DNA from: Thermomicrobiales bacterium
GTDB taxonomy: Bacteria; Chloroflexota; Chloroflexia; Thermomicrobiales; UBA6265
Direction: 5' to 3'
DNA length: 64,000 bases
Assembly: GCA_042408955.1 (NCBI GenBank)
Contig: JBHOQQ010000088.1
Coordinates: 650-64,649 of the forward strand
Shown: in pieces, positions 25,980-62,280 of the stretch
Numbering within the stretch: the first letter of the stretch is position 1
Layout of the letters: every line of letters begins with the position of its first letter
The notes under the pieces: model-generated
Seen by the model: only the letters and a program-made list of their open reading frames with translations
The model's database searches: none
Told to the model about the DNA's origin: nothing
Made by a program: the position numbers and the translations under genes

Positions 25980-28900
25980 TCAGTCCGCTGCGCCCTTGGC
26001 CTCGACCTCGTCAGGCGTGGTGACGGAAAGCAGTAACGTCGCCCGCGGAATCACCTTCCAGGTCGCGCTCAGGGTCTCGTTCCAGTTCGCAAGCAACGCC
26101 TGTGCGTGCGCGCTCCCGGTCAGCTCCACATGCCGCTCGATCAGCTCACGCAGGCGTGCGGCATCCTCGGTGCTCAGTCCGCGCTCAACCAGCACCGATT
26201 CGCCATTGATCCGGCCGTCGAACTCTCCCGCTGGGTCGTAGACATACGCGATGCCGTTGGTCATCCCAGCGCCGAAATTGCGCCCGGTCGGGCCGAGGAC
26301 GACGACGGTGCCGCCGGTCATGTACTCGCAGCCATGATCGCCGACACCCTCGACCACAGCGGTGGCTCCGCTGTTGCGGACGGCGAAGCGCTCTCCGGCC
26401 TTACCCGCGAGGTAGAGCTCGCCGCCGGTAGCGCCGTACAAGATAGTGTTGCCCGCAATCACTTGCGGATCGCGGAATGAAGCCTCACGCGGCGGCCGGA
26501 TGGCGATCACGCCGCCGCTCATGCCTTTGCCAACGTAGTCATTCGCTTCCCCTTCCAAGATGAGCCGCATGCCGTCTACGAGGAACGCGCCAAAGCTCTG
26601 GCCGGCGCTGCCAGTGAACCGCGCGACCACCTTGCCGATGCGCGGGTTGTTCTTGCCGCGCAAGAGCGCAAGCTCGCCGGCTACACGAGCGCCGACCGTG
26701 CGATCCGGTGTGCCGATCTGGTGCTTGATGCTCACCGAGCGGCCCTCCCGGATGGCGTCGCCCACGGTTTCCAGCATCCAGTCATCAATCGTCGGCTGCG
26801 CATCCTGGACGTCGATCGTCTTGCGGCGCTCGGTCTCGGGCGCGGGGGCGGCGAAGAGGGACGACAGGTCCAGCATGGCCGCGCGGCCCGACAGATCGGT
26901 GCGCTGCGCAAGGAGATCGGAGCGCCCGACGATCTCATCAATGGAGCGAGCGCCGATATCGGCCAATACCTGGCGAACTCCCTCGGCCAGCAGGAGGAAG
27001 TAATTGATGATCTGCTCCGGCGTGCCGGCGAACCGCTTCCGTAGCTCTTCCTTTTGCGTGGCGATGCCGGTCGGGCAGGAGTTGAGGTGGCACTGGCGGG
27101 CCATGTCGCAGCCGATGGCAACAAGCGCCGAGGTGCCGAAGCCGAATTCCTCCGCGCCGAGCATCGCGGCAATCACGACATCTTCGGGCGTCTTGATCCC
27201 GCCGTCGGTGCGGAGCCGGACGCGCGACCGCAACCCATTCATCACCAGGGTTTGCTGCGTTTCGGCCAGACCGAGTTCCCACGGGCAACCCGCGTGCTTG
27301 ATCGACGCTAGCGGCGACGCGCCCGTTCCGCCACTGTGGCCGCTGATCAGGATGTAATCGGCGCGCGCCTTGGCGACGCCGGCGGCGATGGTGCCCACTC
27401 CTGCCTCGGCAACCAGCTTGACGCCGATCTTTGCCCGCGGGTTGCACTGCCGCAGGTCGTAGATCAATTGCGCCAAATCTTCGATCGAGTAGATATCGTG
27501 GTGTGGCGGGGGCGAGATCAGCGGAAGGCCCGGCACAGCGTGGCGAATGCGGGCGATGAACTCGGTCACCTTGTGGCCTGGAAGCTGGCCGCCTTCACCG
27601 GGCTTGCTGCCTTGGGCCATCTTGATCTCGAGTTCCGAGGCCATCGCCAGATAGCGCGCGGTCACGCCGAAGCGGCCGGACGCGACCTGTTTGACCTTCG
27701 AGTGGGCGATGTCTGGACCGGGCTCGTCGTACCAATCCGGATCCTCGCCGCCTTCGCCGGAGTTCGAGCGTGCCCCCAGGCGATTCATCCCGATCGCAAG
27801 CGTTCGATACGCCTCGGGGCTGAGCGCGCCCAGCGACATGGCCGTGACGACGAATCGCTGCACGATCTCCGATGCCGGCTCGACCTCATCGCGTGGGACG
27901 GGGTCGCCCAGCGGCTTGATCGTCATCAGGTCGCGGACGGCCGTCAGCGGGTGATTCCTCACCAACTCACGGTACGCGGCAAAGTCCGACAGGCTGCCGC
28001 TGTTCGCCGCTGCCTGCAATGCCTTGACGGCGGTCGGATTGAACGCGTGATGCTCACCGTCCTTGCGGAACCGGACGAAGCCAGGGTCTGGAAGCTTGGT
28101 GGCTGGCTCCCCGAATGCCTCCCGGTGGCGTCGCAGCACATCAGCCTCGATTTCGGCCAGCCCGATGCCCCCCAGACGCGAAGGAGTGCCGCTGAAGTAC
28201 CGATCAATAACCTCCTGGGACAACCCGATCGCTTCGAAGATCTGCGCTCCCCGGTAGCCCATGGCCGTGGAGATGCCCATCTTCGACGCAACTTTCAGGA
28301 AGCCGTGTTCCAGCGCCTTGATGTAGTTGCGCTGCAAATCCGCCGCTGTCTTGTCCTCGTGCCCCCGGGTACCGGCAAGCTCACCCGCAGCCTGGAGGGC
28401 GAGATAGGGATGGACGGCGGATGCGCCATAGCCGATCAGGCAGGCCAGATGATGCACATCCCAGACCTCACCGGTCTCACAGACGAGATCGGCCTGCATG
28501 CGTAAGCCCTTGCGGCGCAGATCGTGGTGTATGGCACCGACTGCCAGAAGCATCGGGATCGGCGCGCACCGCTCGCTGACTCCCCGGTCCGACAGAATGA
28601 GCACCGAGACACCCTCGCGCACAGCAGACTCTGCCTGGGCGATCAGGCAGTCGAGCGCCGCCTGGAGTGGCGCGGCGGGCACCGGCCCGGATGCGGCCTC
28701 GTCACCCGGCACTTCAAAGAGCGTGGAGAGCCGGCGCGCGCGGAGCCGGCCAGTGTTCAAGGCGGCCAGGACCTCAAGCTGGTCTTCCGAGAGGACGATG
28801 CTGGGCAAGTGAACTAGCTCAGCCGCGTCGGGCGTCTCCACGAGGAGGTTGACGCGCGGCCCCACGAACGAATCGAGCGCCATGATCTTCTTTTCGCGCA

Positions 28901-49365: not shown

Positions 49366-50142
49366 ATGCCGATGGAACCATCGCGAACGCCGCCACACCC
49401 TGCCGGCTCCAGTACGACCGGTACGCCGTCGCCTCCTGGAGGAAATGGCGCTGTGCGTGGCAGATGGCCTGCGCGCGGTCCAGGGCCAGAGCAGGCGCTC
49501 GCCCGCCTCAGCGACGTCGAGCTTGTCGCCAAGCTACAGGAGCGGCAGGCTGCCGCGCTGGCCGTCCTCTATGATCGCTATGCGCCATCGGTTCACGGGC
49601 TGGCGCGCGCGATTCTCCGTGATCCGCGCCTCGCCGAAGACGTGACGCACGACGTGTTTTTACACCTCTGGCAGGATCCGCAAGCCTTCGTACCCAGCCG
49701 GGGACCGTTTCCTGGCTGGCTGCTGCGCGTGGCTCGCAATCGCGCCATTGATGTGTTACGGAAGCGCCGAGAACAGCCATTCCTCACAACCCTCACCGAC
49801 ACCGGGGAGGCGCTCGATCCAGCGTCGTTGCTGGTCGATCCGGAGCCAGATCCTGCCGATCAAGCAGTTGCTCAGGCAATGAGACAAGACGTCCGCCGAG
49901 CGCTGGCGAGCTTGACACCCGATCATCGCCGCCTGTTGGAGATGGCGTATTTCGGTGGTCTCACCCAGCGGGAGATTGCTGCTCAGGTGAATCGCCCACT
50001 CGGCACGATCAAGACGCAGATTCGCGCGGCGATGCAACGCATGGCTGACTTCTTACGCGTCCAACCGGCGGCACCAGGTGACGATCGCTGGCGAGATGAA
50101 CCAGCAGTCGGATGCGGCAGAGGAGGCGCTGAGCCCCAATGA
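49366..50142 (+). CDS. ECF RNA polymerase sigma factor (SigK-like)
   Basis: LYDRY...AEDV-HDVF--LW...WL---ARNRAID; region 4 AYFGGLTQREIA...PLGTIKT-IR. Confidence 0.92.
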   Translation: MPMEPSRTPPHPAGSSTTGTPSPPGGNGAVRGRWPARGPGPEQALARLSDVELVAKLQERQAAALAVLYDRYAPSVHGLARAILRDPRLAEDVTHDVFLHLWQDPQAFVPSRGPFPGWLLRVARNRAIDVLRKRREQPFLTTLTDTGEALDPASLLVDPEPDPADQAVAQAMRQDVRRALASLTPDHRRLLEMAYFGGLTQREIAAQVNRPLGTIKTQIRAAMQRMADFLRVQPAAPGDDRWRDEPAVGCGRGGAEPQ

Positions 50143-50942
50143 GTGGCCCGACGGCTCTGCCTATGACGTGCAACGAGGTGCAAGATGCGCTCGGCGCGTA
50201 TGCCCTGGGAGCACTTGATCCCGAGGAGCAACGAGGGATCGCCCAGCACCTGGCGACGTGCCTCGAATGTCGGCAACGGCTTGCGATCTACGATGCAGTA
50301 ACCGAGGCGCTAGGAAGTGCTCCGGACCCGGTCGCACCGCCGCCTGCTCTGCGCGAGCGGCTGTTACACACTCTTCAAGCCACCGCCGTGCCGGCCCGGC
50401 GCCCGCCGTTTGGTAGTCGTCATGCCGCACGGACGATCACCGTTTCATGGTGGATAGCGGGAGCAGTCGCTGCCATCCTGGTGGCACTCTTGGTTGGTTC
50501 CGGCCTGCTGGCAACGCGTTTGATAGAGACCCGGAATGAGCGGGCTGACGCCGTCGCGGCTGAGCGAAAGCTAGCGCAATACCTTGGATCGGGAGGCCGG
50601 GTCATCACCCTCACCTCGCTGCCGGCGTCGGATTACGGTGACTCGATTGGCCGTGGGAGGCTTATCACAGCGCCAGGTTTGCCTCCGCTGATCGTCGTCA
50701 ATGGCTGCCCCCCGTCGGCGAAGCAGCGCATCTATCGTGTCTGGGTTGCCCGTGGCGATGACCGAACGCGCATTGGCGAACTCGTCGTGCGCGACGATGG
50801 CACTGGCTGGATGGAGGTCAAAATGTCGGAGCCCCTGACGAACTTCGATCGTCTTGGTGTCACCATGGAGATCGGTGGAGGAATTCGGCGAGATATCCTT
50901 GTCGGATCAATTCCCAATGGCGTAAGTGCATCTCGCCCATAG
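50139..50942 (+). CDS. Zinc-binding anti-sigma factor (RskA-like)
   Basis: AYALGAL...HLATCLEC (HxxxCxxC), PPP-LRERLL, a TM helix, C-terminal Y-VW...VT-E; ATGA overlap. Confidence 0.85.
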   Translation: MSGPTALPMTCNEVQDALGAYALGALDPEEQRGIAQHLATCLECRQRLAIYDAVTEALGSAPDPVAPPPALRERLLHTLQATAVPARRPPFGSRHAARTITVSWWIAGAVAAILVALLVGSGLLATRLIETRNERADAVAAERKLAQYLGSGGRVITLTSLPASDYGDSIGRGRLITAPGLPPLIVVNGCPPSAKQRIYRVWVARGDDRTRIGELVVRDDGTGWMEVKMSEPLTNFDRLGVTMEIGGGIRRDILVGSIPNGVSASRP

Positions 50943-53078: not shown

Positions 53079-54317
53079 GTGAGACGGGTGGTGGTAACCG
53101 GGGTGGGCGCGATCACCCCGCTCGGAATCGGGGTCAAGGCGTTCTGGGAGGGCATGGTCGCCGGTCGATCGGGCATTGATCGGATCCAGGCTTGGGATCC
53201 ATCGTCGCTGGACGTCCAGATCGCGGGTGAGGTGCGTGGCTTCGACCCCAAGGATCACATGGATCCCAAGGCGGCCAAGCGCATGGATCGGTTCGCGCAG
53301 TTTGCCGTGGCTGCTGCCCGTGAGGCGATCGAGGGCGCGTGCCTGCGCATCACCGATCAGAATCGGGACATGATCGGCGCGATCATCAACACGGGCGGTG
53401 GCGGTATCCCGACGATCGAAACAGAAGTCCAGAACATGTATACGAAGGGACAGAAAGCCGTGAGCCCCTTCCTGATTCCGATCTTTGCGCCGAACATGGC
53501 CAGTTGCCAGGTCTCGATCGCGTTTGGGCTACGCGGACCATCGATCACGGCTGCCGCAGCGTGCGCCTCGGGCATTCAGGCATTCATTGATGCCGTGCAC
53601 ATGATCCGGCGGGGCGAGATTGATGTAGCGATCACCGGTGGAACCGAGGCCGGCATCACGCCGGTCGCCGTCGCTGGTCTGGCGAACATGAAGGCGCTCT
53701 CGAAGCGGAATCACGATCCGGCGGGCGCGAGCCGGCCGTTTGACCTGGAGCGAGATGGCTTCGTGTTTTCTGAAGGGGCGGCGGTAATGGTCCTCGAAGC
53801 CGAGGAGCACGCGCTCGACCGCGGCGCACCGATCATTTGCGAAGCGCTCGGCGGGGCGTACACCTCCGATGCGTATCACATCACCGCTCCAGATCCGACC
53901 GGGAGCGGAGCGGCGCTGGCCATGACGCGCGCCATCACGTGGGCGGGATTGCAGCCAACCGATGTCAATTACATCGCTGCTCATGCGACTGCCACACCGA
54001 TCGGCGATATCGCTGAGACAGATGCGATCAAGCGGGCATTTGGCGATCATGCCTATAAGCTTGCCGTGTCGGCGAACAAGTCCATGCTTGGCCACCTTCT
54101 GGGCGCTGCTGGGGCGGTTTCAGCGCTCGGCTGCGTACTCGCCATCCGAGATCAGATTGCGCCACCGACGATCAACCTCACGCATCCCGATCCGAAGTGC
54201 GATCTCGACTATGTGCCAAACGTGGCACGCAAAATGACCATCAACGTTGCGCTCGCGAATGGATTCGGCTTTGGCGGACAAAACGCGGTGGCCGTCTTCC
54301 GCCGGTACGAACGTTAG
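53079..54317 (+). CDS. fabF: Beta-ketoacyl-ACP synthase II
   Basis: RRVVVTG-G, AACA (catalytic Cys), DAYH-TAP, AHATAT--GD, KSMLGHLLGAAG, NGFGFGGQN. Confidence 0.95.
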   Translation: MRRVVVTGVGAITPLGIGVKAFWEGMVAGRSGIDRIQAWDPSSLDVQIAGEVRGFDPKDHMDPKAAKRMDRFAQFAVAAAREAIEGACLRITDQNRDMIGAIINTGGGGIPTIETEVQNMYTKGQKAVSPFLIPIFAPNMASCQVSIAFGLRGPSITAAAACASGIQAFIDAVHMIRRGEIDVAITGGTEAGITPVAVAGLANMKALSKRNHDPAGASRPFDLERDGFVFSEGAAVMVLEAEEHALDRGAPIICEALGGAYTSDAYHITAPDPTGSGAALAMTRAITWAGLQPTDVNYIAAHATATPIGDIAETDAIKRAFGDHAYKLAVSANKSMLGHLLGAAGAVSALGCVLAIRDQIAPPTINLTHPDPKCDLDYVPNVARKMTINVALANGFGFGGQNAVAVFRRYER

Positions 54318-55002
54318 CGCGCTGCGCCACGCACGAGCTTCAGCACCGTTCCTTGGTCGGTCCCAGCGGAATGCGAACGTTCGATGATTGCGGTCGGCGG
54401 CTGAAGGAGATGCCGCCGCCATCGCGTCATTCCGTTCGCGCCTGCGCGGGAGTGCACAGCGAGGAATCTCGTTCGCGCGTGCCGGTTCGCGCGAACCCGA
54501 TAGGATGCGATCTGCTCGGTGACGCGGCGCAGTGTTCCTTACGCACCATGGAGACGGGAAACCCCACGTGTGCTCCCGAACCCGGCCAGGCGGGATGATG
54601 GCGACAGGAGGCACGGGGAGCCGGCTTGGGAACAAGCGTAAGCTCCCGGTGCGGCATCCAAGGCGCAGCGCTCGGCGGCGTATCCATATGATCTTCGGGC
54701 GGGGATCTCGCTCATGCAAGCGTGCACCGCGTCATCACGTTTCCGAAGAGCGTTCATCCAAAGGAAGCAGCGATACAAGAGTATCATCTCCGCGGCGCGG
54801 AATTGCGGCCTCTTGCGTTCCTTACCTGGTGCAATCGTCCCGATTGGGAGCGATCTCTAGGCGTGGGGAATGCAATTTCCATAAAAACTTGCTAAGGTAG
54901 CAGAAGCCAGAGGGCGGGAGAACGGAGACCAGGGTCAGGAATGCGTTCTGGCTCCGCATGCCTCCGTTGCCTGCGGTGTGTGACGCACAAGGGGTCTGAG
55001 CA

Positions 55003-55626
55003 GTGGCGGAACGGCCTGAAGGGGAAGCAGCTTTTGAGCGAGAGGTCCATCAGCGGCTACTCGCTGGGGATCGTACTGCTCCTCATGACTTGTGCGCACA
55101 TTTTCTTGAGCGGCTCTGCCGCACGCTTCAGCGCAAGAATCCGACAGTAGATGCGGATCTCGTGAGCGATGCTGTTACGAACGCGCTGCTCGACTATAGC
55201 GAGCATCCTGACCGCTTCAACCCGGACAAGCGCTCCCTGACCGGGTATCTGCTAATGTCCGCGCAGGGCGATCTCCGCAATTTGCTCCGGGCTCGGAAGC
55301 GTGAGCGCCAGGAATTGCCGCTCAACGAGGATGTCGAAAACACGTCTGGCGAGCGGAATAGATTGGCAGAGACAGGGGAATCGCCGGATGACATTCTGGA
55401 TTCCCTGATCGCAGAAGAGTGTCGCCAGCAGGTGATGGCCTTGGCGCAGAACGAAGAAGAGCGGATCGTGTTGCGGCTCATGATGGATGGTGAACGGGAG
55501 ACGGGCGTCTTTCTTGATCAATTGGGGTGGCAAGGTCCGCGCGACGAGCTGAGCACCCGCTTGTACCGCATGAAAGACCGCCTCGTCAAAAGGGTCCGGC
55601 GTTCGCTTGAGGTATGCCATGGATAA
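55003..55626 (+). CDS. Divergent ECF/sigma70-like factor
   Basis: Region 2-like DA---ALL-Y---P--FNP----L--YL---A--DL-N; region 4-like E--VL-LM-DG-R-T...LG...V/LYR-KDRL-KR-RR. Confidence 0.7.
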   Translation: MAERPEGEAAFEREVHQRLLAGDRTAPHDLCAHFLERLCRTLQRKNPTVDADLVSDAVTNALLDYSEHPDRFNPDKRSLTGYLLMSAQGDLRNLLRARKRERQELPLNEDVENTSGERNRLAETGESPDDILDSLIAEECRQQVMALAQNEEERIVLRLMMDGERETGVFLDQLGWQGPRDELSTRLYRMKDRLVKRVRRSLEVCHG

Positions 55627-56020
55627 CGCGGACCAACGTTCGCAACCTGAAGAAACGAGTGTCGCGTTGATGTGCCGGGCTGCGCGGGCCGCCGAGCGCC
55701 GGCCCGCGTTCCTGGCCTCAGTGTTCGCGGCCTACCGAGCCGCAGAGCAACTGGACGAACTTGGGCTTTCGCGCATGTTGAACATTCCGCCCGAGCAGGT
55801 TTGCGGGCTGGCACTTTGTCTTCGCCCGCGCGCCGAGTTCTTTCGCGAGGACGTGCAACGGATCGCCGAGCGTTTTCATGTAGATCCGCAAACGCTGGCA
55901 GGGATTATCCGGCACGTTGAAGCGATCGCGGCGATCGAAGCGGCCAGCACCGCGCACGGGAAAATTGCCGCGGCAGCGCGTGACGCGGAGGAATCATCTG
56001 ACAAGGATGGGACTCCATGA
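55619..56020 (+). CDS. Small helical protein, putative XRE/HTH-like
   Basis: GAGGT RBS; overlaps both neighbours; FLA--F--Y...L---L------V--LALC-RP; C-terminal AAARD. Confidence 0.6.
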   Translation: MDNADQRSQPEETSVALMCRAARAAERRPAFLASVFAAYRAAEQLDELGLSRMLNIPPEQVCGLALCLRPRAEFFREDVQRIAERFHVDPQTLAGIIRHVEAIAAIEAASTAHGKIAAAARDAEESSDKDGTP

Positions 56021-56718
56021 GCGATGCACTGCTGCACAAGCTCGCGGATCGGTTCTGGCGCGAGGCGGGCGGAGCCCCGCCGGAGCCACGCGATCTGGTG
56101 CGGGCAGTGTCGCTGGCGCTCCCGGTAGCGGTGGTCTTCATGCCAGCACTCACCTTAGAGCGGGTACACATCTGGCTCGAGCGGCGCGGCGCTCCCTACC
56201 GCGTTGATTGTGCATCTCGTCGCCTGCGTGGCTGCCTGGTGGCGGCTGGCGGGCGCGGCATCGTCTTCGTTGAGGGCGCCGATCCGGCAGACGAACGCCG
56301 GTTTACCCTTGCACACGAGGTTGCGCACTTTCTGCTTCATTACCAGTATCCGCGCGAGCGGGCAGTGCGCCGCCTTGGACCGGGAATCCTGCCGGTGCTC
56401 GACGGCTTGCGCGAGCCTACCCCCGAGGAGCGGATCGGTGCGGTACTGGCCGGCTGCCCGCTGGGCGTGCACACGCATCTGCTCGAACGCACCGGGGACG
56501 CGGGTGCGCTGGCCGCCGGAGCGGAAAACGAGGCGGACCGGCTCGCCTGGGAACTCCTGGCACCACAGGCCGATCTGCGAAGCGTGCCGGCAGGTGACCG
56601 GGAGCGCGTCTTGCAGACCCGCTTCGGCTTGCCCAGCCCGGAAGCAGCACGGTACGCCCGATGGCTGCGGCGCCGATTCGACGGCCCACCGACCTATTTG
56701 GACTGGCTAGGCTCCTGA
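56017..56718 (+). CDS. ImmA/IrrE family Zn metallopeptidase
   Basis: RRFTLAHEVAHF (HExxH) and E-EAD-LA-ELLAP; ATGA overlap. Confidence 0.88.
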   Translation: MSDALLHKLADRFWREAGGAPPEPRDLVRAVSLALPVAVVFMPALTLERVHIWLERRGAPYRVDCASRRLRGCLVAAGGRGIVFVEGADPADERRFTLAHEVAHFLLHYQYPRERAVRRLGPGILPVLDGLREPTPEERIGAVLAGCPLGVHTHLLERTGDAGALAAGAENEADRLAWELLAPQADLRSVPAGDRERVLQTRFGLPSPEAARYARWLRRRFDGPPTYLDWLGS

Positions 56719-56751
56719 CTCCGTTCCGCGCCCGCACGCGGAGGTGATCCG

Positions 56752-57993
56752 ATGTCCGCAACTCCCGCTGAGAACCCATCACCACCCACGGCGCGTGTCC
56801 GGCCGGGGCCGCCTGCGACCGGCGATCAGCGGCTGATGGCCGATGATGCGTTTCAGGCCGCGTTTGGTGAGCCGCTGTCCCGCACGCTCGATTTGGAAAC
56901 CTGGCTGCCGGGCGAGGACCTGCAACGGCTGTACGAGCGTTTGGAGCAGGAGGTCAAGGGAGCGCTGTCGTATGAGGACGCGGCGCTGCGCACGATCCGG
57001 CACCAGGTGTTGCCGAGAATCGCGCACAACCTGCGGGTGCCGGAGGTTGCGGGCGTCTACCGCGTATCGGCTGAGGATATCGCCCGCGTCCACCGCTTGG
57101 TGCTGTTCAATGGCGGCGTTGAAGCAGCCGATGGTACCTTCGTTGGGCATGACACCCTGGCGATGACGATTACCCAGGTCGGCGTTTGCCTGGTCAGCTA
57201 CCAGGGTGATAGCGGCTCGTGGGTGCACCGGCTGTACCGGCGCGACCTGCGGGCGCATGTCATGGATCCAGTCGAGGAAGTCGAGGCGCTCCTCATGCGG
57301 CGTCAGCGCCGGACCGGCGGGGACGAGCGCGACCGGCGCTCGCAGTTGAGCATGCTGGCGCAGCGGGCCATCCTCGCCTTTGCCGAGCGGGCAGCCCTCT
57401 TGGATCGGTCGACCGCGCCGTGGCGGATGGGCCACGGAAATCCGGTCCCCGTCGAGCTTCTTTCAGGATCCGGCTACATGGCGCTGCTCGATGCCGCGCT
57501 GCCGCTCTTGCGCCGACTCATCGGCGAGCACCGCAAGATCGTCTATGTGCCGAGCGAGCCGCGCGAGGGCGGGCTGCTGACGATCGGGTATGCCTTGCAG
57601 CCGCTCGAATACGCGGTCATCGATACCATGCAGTTGCGGTTGAGCGACGTGGTCGAGCGGTATCACTATGACCGGGCGCACTTCAACGCGGCGCGCGCCT
57701 TTGTCGAGGAGATCGGACCGCAGCTCGTGATTGGGGTCTACCGGGTCTCCTCGCTCGGCCCGCCACGCCTCTTCTACGCGCACCGGGAGCACGCGCATGA
57801 GGCGGCGCTGATCGCGATGGCAGATAGCGCGCTCCAGGAGCATCGCGCGTTCCCGATGCTCATTGATCTTGCCGACACCGTCTGCCACACCATCTTCGGT
57901 CCCGCCGATTTTCGGGACTCGGTCCGGCTGGCTTACCTCGACGCTGGGCATCCCTACAGCTACCTCGGTGAGCGAGAGATGCGCGAACGGTAG
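56752..57993 (+). CDS. Putative divergent NurA-like (RNase H fold) protein
   Basis: GGAGGT RBS; VEAADGT followed by beta strands (ITQVGVCLV); C-terminal FPMLIDLAD echoes NurA YPxxLxxAH/D. Confidence 0.55.
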   Translation: MSATPAENPSPPTARVRPGPPATGDQRLMADDAFQAAFGEPLSRTLDLETWLPGEDLQRLYERLEQEVKGALSYEDAALRTIRHQVLPRIAHNLRVPEVAGVYRVSAEDIARVHRLVLFNGGVEAADGTFVGHDTLAMTITQVGVCLVSYQGDSGSWVHRLYRRDLRAHVMDPVEEVEALLMRRQRRTGGDERDRRSQLSMLAQRAILAFAERAALLDRSTAPWRMGHGNPVPVELLSGSGYMALLDAALPLLRRLIGEHRKIVYVPSEPREGGLLTIGYALQPLEYAVIDTMQLRLSDVVERYHYDRAHFNAARAFVEEIGPQLVIGVYRVSSLGPPRLFYAHREHAHEAALIAMADSALQEHRAFPMLIDLADTVCHTIFGPADFRDSVRLAYLDAGHPYSYLGEREMRER

Positions 57994-58230
57994 CGCCGGG
58001 TAAGGGCACTCCCGATCCTAAGCCCGAGCCTCCGAAGGGTGCGAGTGAAGGAAAACGCACCCGATGCTTGACCGGTTGGAAAAGAAGATGGTGTGATGAA
58101 ATGTGGAAGAACTTTGGTCAGAACACCGTGATGTGTGAATTAGTGAACGAAGTCTTCATGAACATTGAAATTCATCGCCTATGGAAGTTGAGCGTTGCCA
58201 AATGATTTCAGGAAAAAACAGGAGAATGTG

Positions 58231-58846
58231 ATGGGCGGGTACGGATCAGGACGCTGACCTCGCTGGGATGCACGCCCCACCACCGACCGGTTGTACCGCC
58301 TGGTGCTGCACGACTGGACACGGCACGACCGGCTCCAACCCGGTCTCTGGGGCAGCACCCGCTGGCTGCGCGGTGAGCGGGTGACCGGTGCCGTCGGCTG
58401 GATCGTCCTTGGGCAAACGACCGATTCCAGCGTGCGTATGCCGGAGGCACTGCTGCTTCACTATCAGGCCGAGGGTGCGGTGATCTGCGAGCGGATCGCC
58501 CTGACCTGGACCGCCTACCCGCTCGGCGGTCTGTCCGGGGTGCGGGCGACCCTGCGCGGTACTCTCTGGCGGCGTTCACTTTTGCTGCCGGCGCTGTCAC
58601 GGTCTAGCCTATGCCAGCACGCGCGAGGAGCCGTACGAGCGGGCGCTGCGCCGTGCCCAGGCGATCCGCCAGCGGCTGGGGGGATCGCCCAATCTCCTGG
58701 CCCCATTCCCTGCCAAGCCGCCCCGGATGCACTGGCGCACCTACTGGCGGCTTGTAGCGGAGGCGATGGAGTGTGAGGCGGTCTGGGGAGCGGGACGTGC
58801 GGCGTGGCTGGAGCAGGTGGTCAGTCTTGCGCGGCCGCGAAGGTGA
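58231..58846 (+). pseudogene. Decayed Zn-finger hypothetical gene of the MGGxGSG family (mobile-element associated)
   Basis: MGGYGSGR then an in-frame TGA at codon 9. A frameshift near 58530 leads into CPGCGR...CRRCHGLAY-S-RE...RLGG...KPPRMHWRTY-RL. Confidence 0.7.
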
Positions 58847-58859
58847 CGGGAGGACCCCG

Positions 58860-59231
58860 ATGGGACGGAAGGATGGCGTCGCCCGGCGTGAGCAGGCTTT
58901 GCATCGGCACTGGGAACGGCAGGTTCGCCGGTGGGAGGCATGGCAGGACGCGGCCGATGCCGTGCACGACGTGCTGCCTCAGGCGATGGCTGTGCTGAAG
59001 GAGATCCTACAGACCGGGGACCCGAAGGCGCGCCTAATGGTAGTGCTCGCGCTGCTGCGGTGGGCGAGCATCACGCCGCAAGCCGTTTGCCCGTCACCGG
59101 TCGTGACCTGGCTGGATGAGCACCTGGCGGATGCCTTGCTCGTGACCAGCGGCGAAGCACCGGAGCTGATGCCGATGACCGCCGAGCGAAATCGCAACGA
59201 GCCAGCAACGAAACCCGTGCGCGATGCGTGA
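58860..59231 (+). CDS. Hypothetical protein
   Basis: GGAGG RBS before ATG 58860; helical A--VL-E-L--GD--ARL pattern. Confidence 0.45.
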   Translation: MGRKDGVARREQALHRHWERQVRRWEAWQDAADAVHDVLPQAMAVLKEILQTGDPKARLMVVLALLRWASITPQAVCPSPVVTWLDEHLADALLVTSGEAPELMPMTAERNRNEPATKPVRDA

Positions 59232-59400
59232 CACTACCTCACCTCAGCGGTCAATGAACGATCCCGTGAATTGCCCGGCTCGCTCACGACAGGTTGCAGG
59301 CCGGGTGCACAGCCCCGCGAGCCCTGTGTAGAATCCAGTGCCAATGACGTAATCTATCGATGCAGGGCTTCACGCTAGCCGAGAGAGAAGGATCGTTTCT

Positions 59401-62280
59401 GTGATTGCTTCCTCCGTGACACGGCCCGCAGTTGGCTCGCTCGTCTCCGTTCGTAAACGCGATTGGGTCGTCCTGCCGGCCGATGAGCCCGATGTCGTCC
59501 GCCTCCGGCCGCTGACCGGACTCGCGGACGATGCCATCGGCATTTTGCTCCCGTTGGAGCGTGTTGAGCCGAGCCAGTTCCCGAAGCCGGACCCGGCGAC
59601 CGCGTGGGACACGCAGGGTGGCCTGCTGCTGCTGGATGCCGTCCGCCTTGCTCTGCGCGATGGCGCCGCTCCGTTCCGCTCCCTCGGCCGCCTGTCCTTT
59701 ACGCCGCGCCCGTACCAGTTCGTCCCCTTGATCATGGCGCTGCGCCAGGACCCGGTGCGCCTGCTCATCGCCGACGATGTGGGCGTCGGCAAAACGATCG
59801 AGGCCGGCATGATCGCTCGTGAGCTCCTCGACCGTGGCCTCGCGCACCGCCTTGCCGTCATCTGCCCGGCGCACCTCTGCGAGCAGTGGGAAGCTGAGCT
59901 AGCCGAAAAGTTTGGCATTCAGGCTGCCGTCATTCAATCTGCCCGCTTTGCCCGCCTGGAGCGCGAGCTGCCGCGTCCCGATCTGAGCGTCTTCTCGTAT
60001 TACCGGCACCTCATCGCCAGCATCGACTACGTCAAGTCCGGCGCACACCGGGGGCCCTTCCTCGACAACGCGCCCGACCTTGTCATCGTCGACGAGGCGC
60101 ACATGGCGGCCCGTCCCCGCGGTCAGGCCGGCAACGTGCAGCACCAGCGCTACGAGTTCCTGCGCGACCTCGCTGCCAATCCGCGGCGGCATATCCTTCT
60201 CGTGACTGCCACACCACACAGTGGCATCGAGGAGAGCTTCCGCTCGCTCCTTGGCCTGCTGGATCGGCGCTTCGACATCACCGGCCCTGACGACCCAGCA
60301 GACTTCCCGCGTGAGGCGCTCCTGCCGCATCTTGTCCAACGCCAGCGGAAGGACTTGGAGCGCTGGCTCGGCAATGAGACCCCATTCCCTCGGCGTGAAT
60401 CTCAGGAGCGCCCTTATCCGCTATCCCGCGCCTACCACGCGCTTTTCGACGACGTCCTCGCCTACTGCCGGGAATCGGTTCGCTCCGGCGGCGGGCTCGG
60501 TTCGCAGCAACAGCGAGTCCGCCACTGGGCGGCCATCGCTCTCCTCCGCTGCGTCCTCTCCAGTCCGCGCGCGGCGGTCTCGGTCCTCGCCGAACGAGCG
60601 AAGAAGCAGGGGCTGACCGAGGCCGAGCAGGCCCCGCCGGATGACGAGATCGACGCGATCTACCGGCCGCAAGTCCTCGATCCGATTGACGAGGAAGCAG
60701 TTGGCGATTACGTCCCGGCCGCGCCCATCGAAGACGCCGAGATCCTGCTCGCCGATTCGGAGCGCCGCCGCCTGTCCAGCTTCCTCAAGCGCGCTCGCGA
60801 GCTCGAAGGCCCATCCCACGACGCGAAGCTCGCCGAGCTCGGCACCGCCGTTGCCGAGCTGTTGCGCGACGGCTACCGACCGATCGTCTTCTGCCGCTAC
60901 ATCGCCACTGCCGACTATCTGGCAGCGTGGCTGCCGAAGGTGGTGAACACGGATGCGCCGAACCTCCGCGTGGTCGCCGTCACCGGCGAGATCGGGGACG
61001 AGGAGCGGCGCGCGAAGATCGACGAGCTCGTTGCCGAGACCGGCCCGCGCGTCCTCGTCGCCACCGACTGCCTGTCGGAAGGGATCAATCTCCAAGAGCA
61101 CTTCGACGCCGTTGTTCACTACGACCTGCCCTGGAATCCGAACCGCATCGAGCAGCGCGAGGGGCGCGTCGACCGCTTCGGGCAGACCAAGCCGGTCATT
61201 AGGACGATGCTCCTGTACGGCTCAGACAACCCGGTTGACCGCGTCGTCTTGGACGTTCTGATCCGGAAGGCGAGGACGATCCGGGACCGGCTGGGGGTCT
61301 CCATCCCCGTGCCGGGCGAGACCGAGCTCATCGTCCAGAGCGTTGTCGAGAGCGTGCTCCTGCAGGGCTCGGCAGCGGCGATGCCGGCCCGGTCGGGCGT
61401 GCAGCTCACCCTCGGCTTGACCGGCCCTGAAGTCAGCCGGCTCCACGCCGCCTGGGAGGCCGCGGCAGACAAAGAGCGAGCGAGCCGCGCGTTCTTCGCG
61501 CAGCGCGGCATCAAACCGGACGAGGTGGCCCGGGAGCTGGAAGCCGCCGACCCCGTCCTTGGCGATGCCGACTCCGTCCGCCGCTTCCTTGCGGGTGCGC
61601 TGCAACGCTTCGGCGGCGAGCTGCGTCCCACCACGCGCGAGGGCGTCTTTGAGCTGTTCCCCGGGCAGCTTGCTTCAACGCTTGAGGATCGCGGCTTCTC
61701 CGGCTCCCCCCTGCGCGTCACCTTCGACCGGCGCCACGATCCAACCGCGATCGCCCTCGGCCGCACCCACCCAATCGTCGCCGCCGTCTGCGACGCGGTG
61801 ATCGGCCGCGCCATGACTCCCGGCGGTGACCGCGCCTTCGCCCGGTGCGGCGCCACCTTCACCACCGCCGTCACCCGCCGGACGGCCGTCCTCCTCCTGC
61901 GCTTGCGCTATCTCCTCAAGGAGCAGGAGACCGACCAATTCGCCGAGGAGATTGTGCTCGCCGCCTTCGAGCCGCGCGAGGGCCGCCCGGCGTGGCTGGA
62001 ACCACTCGACTCCGCGGCCCGCGACCTCCTCGCTCGCTCCCGCCCGCTCGTCAACGCGAGCCAGAAAGAGCGCGCCGAGCAGGTAGCCTGGGCGCTCTCG
62101 TTCCTCGACCGCGATCCGGCGTGGTTCCGGCCGATCGTCACCTGGCGCGAGGCGCAGCTTCAGGAGTCGCACGCCCGGTTGCGCAAGCTCGCCAAGGCGC
62201 CGCGGCTCCAGGTCCGGCCACATGAGCCACCCGACATCCTCGGCTGCTATGTCCTCGTCCCCGCTGGAGGAACCCGCTGA
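59401..62280 (+). CDS. SNF2-family helicase (DISARM DrmD-like)
   Basis: PYQ, LLIADDVGVGKTIEAG, DEAH, TATPHSG, ATD-LSEGINLQ, YDLPWNPNR-EQR-GRVDR-GQ. Confidence 0.88.
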   Translation: MIASSVTRPAVGSLVSVRKRDWVVLPADEPDVVRLRPLTGLADDAIGILLPLERVEPSQFPKPDPATAWDTQGGLLLLDAVRLALRDGAAPFRSLGRLSFTPRPYQFVPLIMALRQDPVRLLIADDVGVGKTIEAGMIARELLDRGLAHRLAVICPAHLCEQWEAELAEKFGIQAAVIQSARFARLERELPRPDLSVFSYYRHLIASIDYVKSGAHRGPFLDNAPDLVIVDEAHMAARPRGQAGNVQHQRYEFLRDLAANPRRHILLVTATPHSGIEESFRSLLGLLDRRFDITGPDDPADFPREALLPHLVQRQRKDLERWLGNETPFPRRESQERPYPLSRAYHALFDDVLAYCRESVRSGGGLGSQQQRVRHWAAIALLRCVLSSPRAAVSVLAERAKKQGLTEAEQAPPDDEIDAIYRPQVLDPIDEEAVGDYVPAAPIEDAEILLADSERRRLSSFLKRARELEGPSHDAKLAELGTAVAELLRDGYRPIVFCRYIATADYLAAWLPKVVNTDAPNLRVVAVTGEIGDEERRAKIDELVAETGPRVLVATDCLSEGINLQEHFDAVVHYDLPWNPNRIEQREGRVDRFGQTKPVIRTMLLYGSDNPVDRVVLDVLIRKARTIRDRLGVSIPVPGETELIVQSVVESVLLQGSAAAMPARSGVQLTLGLTGPEVSRLHAAWEAAADKERASRAFFAQRGIKPDEVARELEAADPVLGDADSVRRFLAGALQRFGGELRPTTREGVFELFPGQLASTLEDRGFSGSPLRVTFDRRHDPTAIALGRTHPIVAAVCDAVIGRAMTPGGDRAFARCGATFTTAVTRRTAVLLLRLRYLLKEQETDQFAEEIVLAAFEPREGRPAWLEPLDSAARDLLARSRPLVNASQKERAEQVAWALSFLDRDPAWFRPIVTWREAQLQESHARLRKLAKAPRLQVRPHEPPDILGCYVLVPAGGTR

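Follow-up and report, generated by a model that had tools for sequence, protein, structure and literature searches.

A putative protease-released sigma switch in a mobile NurA-HerA gene set of Thermomicrobiales and other bacteria

A cassette of four genes, here called O1 to O4, lies on the forward strand of a 64,000-nucleotide stretch of DNA (hereafter the window) from contig JBHOQQ010000088.1 of a Thermomicrobiales bacterium (GenBank assembly GCA_042408955.1). The genes encode a sigma-like protein, a small partner protein, a zinc peptidase of the M78 family and a protein with a NurA fold. Comparison with related loci indicates that they represent the control unit (sigma, putative inhibitor and protease) and the nuclease of a widespread, mobile gene set that is apparently undescribed. 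The usual form of the set has six genes, which encode a DNA methyltransferase, a sigma factor resembling those of the extracytoplasmic function (ECF) group, an XRE-like partner, an M78 peptidase, NurA and HerA. With a probability of roughly 55%, the sigma-like protein, its partner and the peptidase form a protease-released sigma/anti-sigma switch that turns on NurA and HerA as part of this conserved and mobile six-gene system, which would probably serve in modification-linked defence. A first-pass annotation of the window had reported the cassette, an observation that is confirmed here, and had interpreted it as a damage- or phage-triggered circuit of four genes that might act on a neighbouring defence locus. 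That interpretation is supported in part, being right on the switch and wrong on the extent of the system and on the neighbouring locus, which is DISARM-like.

Gene content of related loci

Related loci were obtained by a pattern scan of one genome per species, in which 189 of 226 pattern matches encoded a relative of O4. The best 80 loci were analysed, and open reading frames (ORFs) were called in them and searched with the proteins of the window; locus L004 (genome G007) was left out of the locus counts. These 80 loci come from Chloroflexota, Acidobacteriota, Planctomycetota, Nitrospirota, Cyanobacteria, Bacteroidota and other groups, and the carriers include the cultured strains Thermogemmatispora tikiterensis T81, Agaribacillus aureus BMA12 and Planctomycetales bacterium 10988. 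The genes of the cassette co-occur elsewhere, with O1, O2 and O3 all present upstream of the O4 relative in 70 of the 72 loci that have at least 2.3 kb of upstream sequence. The order O1-O2-O3 and the strand were constant wherever these genes were found, except in locus L029, where O3 comes first. A HerA gene of about 620 amino acids (aa), identified by PF01935 (7.9e-19) and HerA_C, follows O4 directly, on the same strand and within 2.5 kb, in 70 of 71 loci. A DNA methyltransferase gene of about 425 aa (N6_N4_Mtase, 1.8e-22) is the immediate upstream neighbour of O1 in 50 of 66 loci; when every position in the locus is counted, it is present in 57 of the 66. The cassette had been taken for a complete four-gene system; elsewhere it runs on into HerA and mostly starts with the methyltransferase, so the extent first assigned to it was too short.

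Searches against PADLOC-DB 2.0.0 gave no family at E<=1 for O1, O2 or O4, in agreement with the earlier view that the system is unnamed there. The HerA matched only the generic HerA, mad8 and DndH models, and the methyltransferase matched mad2. Identity with MADS, with HerA as mad8 and the methyltransferase as mad2, was considered and rejected because O1 to O4 match no mad model and the MADS nuclease module is of the OLD type in the available text of PMC13662399. No description of this gene set turned up in literature searches or in the accessible portions of PMC12839542 and PMC10853773.

Two further observations concern the arrangement of the genes. In the rearranged locus L029, from a Microcystaceae, a methyltransferase on the opposite strand is followed by O3, by O1 and by an open frame that resembles a fusion of O2 and O4. 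One Thermomicrobiales metagenome-assembled genome (proteins P0001, P0125, P0126 and P0151) seems to hold two mosaic copies of the cassette; on one contig O4 is 94% and O1 only 70% identical to the window, and on the other O1 is 80% and O2 75% identical. These mosaic identities suggest recombination between cassette copies.

Proteins of the cassette

The O1 of the window matches Sigma70_r2 (PF04542) with an E value of 1.7e-3 and 18.5 bits, the cut-off being 24 bits. The same model is matched by 16 of 36 members of the O1 family at E<=0.01, the best at 7.7e-9. A profile of the family, searched against the Protein Data Bank (PDB), gave E. coli sigma-E as its best match (1or7, 6jbq), aligned at full length over positions 4-195 with an E value of 0.014; at this borderline value the alignment with 1or7 extends through the C-terminal domain. 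The sigma-like character given to the first gene by the first-pass annotation is supported by the family, and O1 is read, on borderline sequence similarity, as a divergent two-domain ECF-like sigma factor.

The peptidase O3 matches Peptidase_M78 (PF06114) with an E value of 5.6e-8 and 33.1 bits (cut-off 22 bits), and its best PADLOC model is capP (2.1e-10), which is covered over model positions 42-121 of 242 only, that is, over the peptidase part. The HExxH...E motif had been described as intact; residues H100, E101, H104 and E170 are all present and are kept in 77, 76, 77 and 77 of 77 homologues, respectively. CapP has the layout peptidase-helix-turn-helix (HTH)-GAF, and its substrate CapH is cut at F82-R83, according to the available part of bioRxiv 10.64898/2026.05.16.725639. 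A resemblance of the peptidase and the small protein to an ImmA/CapP-type pair, suggested earlier, agrees with PF06114 and the capP model on the side of O3 and with a weak CapH fold match on the side of O2.

O2 has no family match in Pfam, NCBIfam, PHROGs or PADLOC, and its profile gave only chance-level matches among PDB sequences. Its predicted structure has a predicted local distance difference test (pLDDT) score of 91.3 and consists of five short helices and a long helix, 90-129. Foldseek placed HTH proteins of the XRE type at the top, the first being the N-terminal domain of CapH (7t5u), a weak match (E 0.63, probability 0.51). Further matches, all of them weak, were the restriction-modification (R-M) controller proteins C.AhdI (1y7y), C.EcoT38IS (2ef8) and C.BclI (2b5a), and DdrO at rank 49. 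Matches of the same model by VIA-align all fell on the long C-terminal helix and were uninformative for the N-terminal domain. Three residues are invariant in 33 O2 sequences: C67, in a loop of the LALCRRP type, and A120 and R121 of the AARD motif, which is nearly invariant across phyla. The AAARD stretch had been described as a flexible terminal tail. It occupies residues 117-121 of 133, lies within the long predicted helix and is followed by a variable charged tail, so that description does not hold.

Prediction of a complex between O1 and O2, run on family alignments, gave ipSAE scores of 0.85, 0.84 and 0.84 (median 0.84), and the best of three controls gave 0.00. Among 80 solved complexes 58 attained this mark, compared with 2 among 110 mismatched pairs; these frequencies apply only roughly to O1 and O2 because alignments made for the present analysis were used. 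Contact agreement among the runs was at least 51%, and the pLDDT of the partner was at least 79. At the predicted interface, residues 22-67 of O1 (N-terminal sigma2 helices, with the conserved GD.TA) meet residues 11-31 and 63-86 of O2, and the O2 side includes the LALCRRP loop with its invariant Cys. The modelling supports binding of O2 to O1 and is compatible with the anti-sigma option that had been raised for the small protein. O2 is accordingly presented here as a candidate anti-sigma factor and candidate protease substrate.

O4 has no match in Pfam, NCBIfam, PHROGs or PADLOC. When its model was compared with 48,161 chains by VIA-align, ranks 1-5 were all of the NurA family: 2ygk with Z 9.9 (rmsd 5.6, 207 residues aligned), 7f6d_G with 7.8, 8wet_G with 7.6, 9x1l_G with 6.5 and 1zup with 6.0. 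Foldseek also placed 2ygk first (E 0.05), and in the protein-atlas clusters neighbouring O4, PF09376 is carried by 21-64% of the members. The earlier claim that the fourth gene is NurA-like is therefore supported by its predicted fold and not by a Pfam match, and O4 is best described as a NurA-fold, nuclease-like protein. A genome-wide search with PF09376 gave a single match in the source genome, a Pfam-recognisable NurA at a separate locus on contig C191. A second DUF87/HerA-type match occurs on contig C23 of the source genome.

A promoter-like motif

The O3-O4 spacers of related loci contain a bipartite consensus, TGTCGAACTT-N-GGAATA. The upstream element occurs in the variants GTCGAAC and GTCGCAC. 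Over 1.115 Mb the strict pattern was matched at 89 sites on the operon strand but at only 4 on the opposite one; 20 shuffles gave 6 sites on average and 10 at most, both strands together. The spacing was identical in 72 of the 89 sites. Forty sites lie in the O3-O4 spacer (39 of 70 loci) and 31 inside the O1 coding sequence (31 of 76 loci); the others lie just upstream of O1 (5), just after HerA (5), at the O4-HerA junction (2) and elsewhere (6). The motif is non-palindromic, occurs on one strand, is always directed at downstream genes and has an AAC-containing upstream element, which are the features expected of an ECF-type promoter. O1 is the protein that would read it. The suggestion that the sigma factor drives the nuclease-like gene thus gains from a conserved promoter-like motif ahead of that gene in more than half of the related loci. 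The copy inside O1 encodes VEL....GN, the sole conserved residues of the sigma2-sigma4 linker, and the constancy of its codons points to selection at the DNA level.

Some loci place the motif differently. In the Chloroflexia loci L012, L019, L035 and L047 (and L018), about 2.4 kb separates O3 from O4 and 1.4-1.8 kb separates O4 from HerA, and the motif is found instead about 50 nt upstream of O1. Three of the five copies that follow HerA (L017:11149, L024:11294 and L055:8137) stand ahead of accessory genes, namely a SAVED-domain, an RmuC and a Metallophos (SbcD-like) gene.

The copy in the window

The features of the cassette are given in Table 1. The arrangement first reported, four same-strand genes with overlaps of 8 nt and ATGA and a 33-nt gap with a ribosome-binding site, was confirmed by the ORF listing and by direct reading. 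The 8-nt overlap joins O1 and O2, and the ATG start of O2 is supported by 32 of 32 aligned homologues that begin at the same Met. The ATGA overlap joins O2 and O3, and the 33-nt spacer between O3 and O4 contains GGAGGTGA. The nearest homologues bear Thermomicrobiales names. All four frames are open, and in the family alignments every family-invariant residue is kept in the four proteins of the window.

Table 1. Positions in the window of the four genes, of associated signals and of the point at which synteny ends
Feature	Position	Strand	Evidence
O1, divergent ECF-like sigma factor (borderline), 207 aa	55003-55626	+	ORF listing and direct reading
Degenerate bipartite motif, GTCGAAAAC...GGAATA, inside the O1 coding sequence	55333-55360	+	Relaxed pattern, two mismatches
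O2, small helical XRE-like protein, 133 aa	55619-56020	+	ORF listing and direct reading
O3, M78 (ImmA/IrrE/CapP-type) zinc peptidase, 233 aa	56017-56718	+	ORF listing and direct reading
Shine-Dalgarno-like GGAGGTGA ahead of O4	56740-56747	+	Direct reading
O4, NurA-fold nuclease-like protein, 413 aa	56752-57993	+	ORF listing, fold match
Breakpoint of the NurA-HerA spacer, end of synteny	57999-58000		Comparison with relative and run X4 contig

The copy in the window is derived, split and possibly weakened. HerA is not adjacent to O4; the HerA of the genome lies on another contig (C180:5004-6854) as an open frame of 632 aa that is 76% identical to the HerA of a same-genus relative. It is followed by metallo-beta-lactamase and cupin genes, as in the relative, and the preceding PGA_cap and YkuD-like genes are unrelated. 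A tblastn search of the 64-kb window with all methyltransferases and HerAs of the family gave no HerA and one marginal methyltransferase match at 33.4 kb, and a search of the source genome for a methyltransferase ortholog gave short weak matches only. Scans with the strict motif and with a weight matrix found no site in or near the cassette, weak distant matches at 26972 and 6197 being taken as chance, and neither strict nor relaxed patterns found the motif in the O3-O4 spacer. Scans of 54300-59450 for sigma-70 promoters and terminators gave no more than was found in shuffles. Over the degenerate motif inside O1 the protein reads VENTSGERN, and the same-genus relative likewise has only an internal motif with two mismatches in O1.

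The relative shares nucleotide likeness with the window over 55024-57983 only, at 68.5% identity. It has HerA 23 nt after O4 and is without the methyltransferase and the spacer promoter, and the operon is kept. A 316-nt contig from run X1 bridges 57903-58217 and is not independent because X1 may be the source sample. A contig from run X4, of another study, has 6 differences over 308 nt (98% alike), tracks O4 to 57999 and then continues with 117 letters unlike the window; its loose end (the printed start) and the stretch just before HerA on C180 have the 11-letter string CCGCGTGGGAG in common. This gives a weak hint that close strains keep NurA and HerA together and that the break in this strain fell within the short NurA-HerA spacer. 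Right after the end of synteny lies an AT-rich stretch at 58060-58230, in a genome with 61-69% G+C in 2-kb bins. An ORF at 58291-58776 has no match in Pfam, and an ORF at 58773-59231 has none in Pfam, NCBIfam, PHROGs or PADLOC. If the copy of the window is active, O2, O3 and O4 are probably co-transcribed and HerA probably acts in trans.

Gene neighbourhood and mobility

A helicase-methylase locus begins at 59401, which is 1407 nt after O4 and accords with the distance of about 1.4 kb reported earlier. It encodes a DrmD/DpdE-like SNF2 helicase (up to 3.1e-192) and then a DrmMI-like methylase (2.8e-48), both DISARM-like, and the contig ends 626 bases past the window, inside the methylase gene. 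A SNF2/DrmD-like gene is found within 8 kb in 2 of the 80 related loci and DrmMI in none of the 80; the adjacency is incidental, since SNF2 genes are nearby in only those 2 loci. The family motif is absent from 58000-59400 with strict and relaxed patterns, so that none precedes DrmD. The suggestion that the switch drives the downstream defence genes is not supported, given these counts and the restriction of likeness with the relative to the cassette itself, and the DISARM-like locus is a separate system, a bystander. Contig C180 was considered as a continuation of the DISARM locus and was dropped: its first 5 kb encode PGA_cap and YkuD-like proteins, and the sole DrmB-type (PF09369) match is on C112, within an open frame of 1750 aa.

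The system is horizontally mobile, with O4 present in 5 of 41 related genomes. The scan of the flanks covered the 111 ORFs nearest to the core in 70 loci, each of 200 aa or more and no farther than 900 nt from it. Cas1/Cas4-Cas1 models matched 12 of the 111. The Pfam matches among them were 7 Cas1, 7 Cas4, 3 Cas3-like C-terminal, 3 UvrD, 3 WYL/WCX, 2 TIR, 2 Schlafen AlbA_2 and 6 Metallophos, together with a few transposases. These counts, which are without a matched background, are typical of defence islands. In L066, L008, L042, L065, L069, L033 and others, HerA is followed on its own strand, after no more than about 100 nt, by the start of a gene for Cas4 or Cas4-Cas1. Such genes account for 7 to 12 of the 111 flanking ORFs. 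They may reflect a link to CRISPR adaptation or mere clustering in islands. Elsewhere in the window, at 49366-50942, a conventional ECF sigma gene (258 aa) has an ATGA overlap with the gene for a 267-aa protein whose N-terminus is rich in Cys and His and which contains a hydrophobic segment; judged by eye from the translations, the two resemble an ordinary pair of sigma factor and membrane anti-sigma factor.

Proposed mechanism and alternative explanations

In the proposed mechanism, O1 would be held inactive by O2, which would cover its N-terminal sigma2 helices. On a signal, O3 would cut O2, possibly at or near the conserved AARD; by analogy, single-stranded DNA or damage done to DNA by an invader might be that signal. 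Freed O1 would bring RNA polymerase to its own promoter, TGTCGAACTT-N-GGAATA, ahead of nurA-herA, and the second promoter copy, inside the sigma gene, would re-express the partner and the peptidase and so reset the switch. NurA and HerA would then degrade DNA, and modified self DNA is suggested to be spared because a methyltransferase is usually linked.

Several points weigh against this reading, all steps of which rest on computation. The O1 of the window falls under the Pfam cut-off for Sigma70_r2, the alignment with sigma-E is borderline (E 0.014), and Pfam models of Sigma70 region 4 are matched by none of the 36 O1 members at E<=0.01. The XRE-like fold match of O2 is weak, and a protein of this type might just as well act as a repressor that binds DNA. 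The score of the O1-O2 complex is the model's own confidence and not a measurement. O3 appears to be without the GAF domain that forms the groove for single-stranded DNA in IrrE and CapP, and the trigger may therefore differ from theirs. Pfam NurA (PF09376) is matched at E<=1 by none of 18 O4 relatives, nor by the O4 of the window, and the O4 profile has no match among PDB sequences at E<=10; the O4 model is mediocre, with a pLDDT of 64 overall and under 50 in the conserved stretch 127-171. No methyltransferase was seen in 9 of 66 loci. In 31 of 70 loci the O3-O4 spacer lacks the strict motif, as does the window, whose copy may be inactive.

The reading of the set as a mobile, damage-inducible module for DNA-end processing or repair, which would resect broken chromosomal ends much as IrrE/DdrO control repair in Deinococcus and would not act on invaders, is unlikely, at perhaps one chance in five. 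NurA and HerA are known from end resection in the portions available of PMC3326311 and PMC12977600, and the Metallophos genes, 6 of the 111 nearest flanking ORFs and one of them behind the motif, point the same way. Against repair stand the methyltransferase in 57 of 66 loci, the patchy occurrence in 5 of 41 relatives with flanks that are unrelated within one genus, the CRISPR, WYL, TIR, SAVED and Schlafen genes as immediate neighbours, and the separate Pfam-recognisable NurA that the genome has on another contig. Derepression of the CapH/CapP type is rather improbable. Here O2 would be a DNA-binding XRE repressor cut by O3, and O1 would be an activator or a passenger that is not sequestered. 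XRE repressors are the best Foldseek matches of O2 (CapH 7t5u first, DdrO at rank 49), capP is the best model for O3 in the defence library, and the CapH/CapP mechanism is experimentally established. Lau et al. (bioRxiv 10.1101/2022.04.27.489752), in the text available, mention a sigma factor of the sigma-70 family that is co-encoded with capH and capP in 24 CBASS systems, without proposing sequestration; the first-pass statement that no such switch with a dedicated sigma factor is known is accordingly not supported. The motif, however, is bipartite, non-palindromic and strand-specific, which is promoter-like and unlike a dimeric operator, and in the predicted complex O2 contacts O1 through its invariant loop and the end of what would be its recognition helix. 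The triad is also co-directional with the genes that it would control, whereas the same partial source places capH and capP on the other strand, upstream of the operon under their control.

Two other explanations concern the window rather than the family. That its cassette is a stranded remnant, non-working after the separation of HerA and without a methyltransferase or a promoter for the nuclease, is about as improbable as derepression. The position of HerA on another contig, the lack of HerA remnants and the one marginal methyltransferase match in the 64-kb window, the short weak matches in place of a methyltransferase ortholog in the genome and the absence of the strict motif would fit a remnant, and an adjacent HerA is missing in only 1 of 71 other loci. 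It is countered by the four open frames with every family-invariant residue kept, by the intact detached HerA and by the same-genus relative, which is also without the methyltransferase and the spacer promoter and has kept the operon. Control of the DISARM-like locus by the switch is very improbable. The two are on the same strand and physically close, and the available text of Lau et al. reports CapH-CapP fusion proteins beside DISARM systems (bioRxiv 10.1101/2022.04.27.489752), but the low co-occurrence of SNF2/DrmD-like genes and DrmMI with the family, the lack of the motif before DrmD and the end of synteny with the relative right after O4 argue against it. Overall, a protease-released sigma/anti-sigma switch ahead of NurA-HerA remains the preferred reading.

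Comparison with known systems

The family is built from known modules in a new combination. CapH and CapP offer a close parallel: an M78 peptidase adjoins a small XRE-like protein in operons of the defence type, and capP and CapH are the best matches of O3 and, weakly, of O2. In the window and in related loci the genes are co-directional with the controlled genes and not divergent, O3 is probably without a GAF domain since it matches only the peptidase part of the capP model, and the controlled genes are nurA-herA. The predicted binding of O2 to a sigma factor would also make the output sigma release and not lost repression. IrrE (PprI)/DdrO of Deinococcus and ImmA/ImmR of ICEBs1 and phages share the peptidase family PF06114 and the cutting of a regulator after DNA damage, and DdrO is the O2 match at rank 49. 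Their substrates, in contrast, are DNA-bound repressors, no sigma factor is involved, and IrrE has HTH and GAF domains.

ECF sigma factors are released from their anti-sigma factors, where regulated proteolysis is used, by site-1 and site-2 membrane proteases. Pairs of this group, among them DdvS/DdvA, share with the proposed pair a small two-domain sigma factor, an inhibitor encoded alongside it and a dedicated promoter whose upstream element contains AAC. O2 differs in being cytoplasmic and XRE-like, without a zinc anti-sigma motif or a membrane span; the presumed protease is of the ImmA/IrrE type, and one copy of the promoter lies within the sigma gene. Immune genes under sigma/anti-sigma control have a precedent in DdvS/DdvA itself, which controls a CBASS-CRISPR island in Myxococcus according to the portion of PMC11506125 available.

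The archaeal and Deinococcus NurA-HerA pairs (2ygk, 7f6d, 9x1l) and TdpAB (8wet) are linked to the set by the five best structural matches of O4 and by HerA as the next gene in 70 of 71 loci. TdpAB is a defence pair that senses modification. Unlike these, O4 is without a Pfam NurA match and has an extra N-terminal helical region, the genes are linked to a methyltransferase and have a private transcription switch, and the pair is split in the window. The controller (C) proteins of R-M systems are likewise small XRE-like proteins in a unit with a methyltransferase and a nuclease, where O2 could similarly time the expression of the nuclease. C proteins bind directly to DNA operators; the present set has a sigma factor and a protease in addition, and O2 matches the C proteins only weakly in fold. 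The neighbour from 59401, DISARM class 1 (DrmD, DrmMI), is not part of the cassette, given the co-occurrence in 2 of 80 loci and the break in synteny.

Significance

The known regulators of immune operons CapH/CapP, CapW/BrxR and CapK/CapS act by removal of a repressor. In the present system the output would be positive, through release of a private sigma factor. Because the system carries its own promoter specificity, a toxic nuclease system could cross phyla and yet be expressed correctly. A broader reading, which we hold tentatively and at somewhat under even odds, is that an XRE-fold anti-sigma factor, an ImmA-type protease, a private ECF-like sigma factor and two promoters of its own make up a self-contained, host-independent module that provides restriction on demand together with the methyltransferase, a modification-aware NurA-HerA nuclease being made only once an alarm is raised, and the triad being plugged before other immune operons as a general, so far undescribed class of activator. 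The cultured strains that carry the system make every step directly testable. If borne out, the switch would add a new kind of anti-sigma factor, XRE in fold and protease-labile, would provide a rare example of promoter conservation within coding DNA, and would give bacterial NurA-HerA a second, non-housekeeping role.

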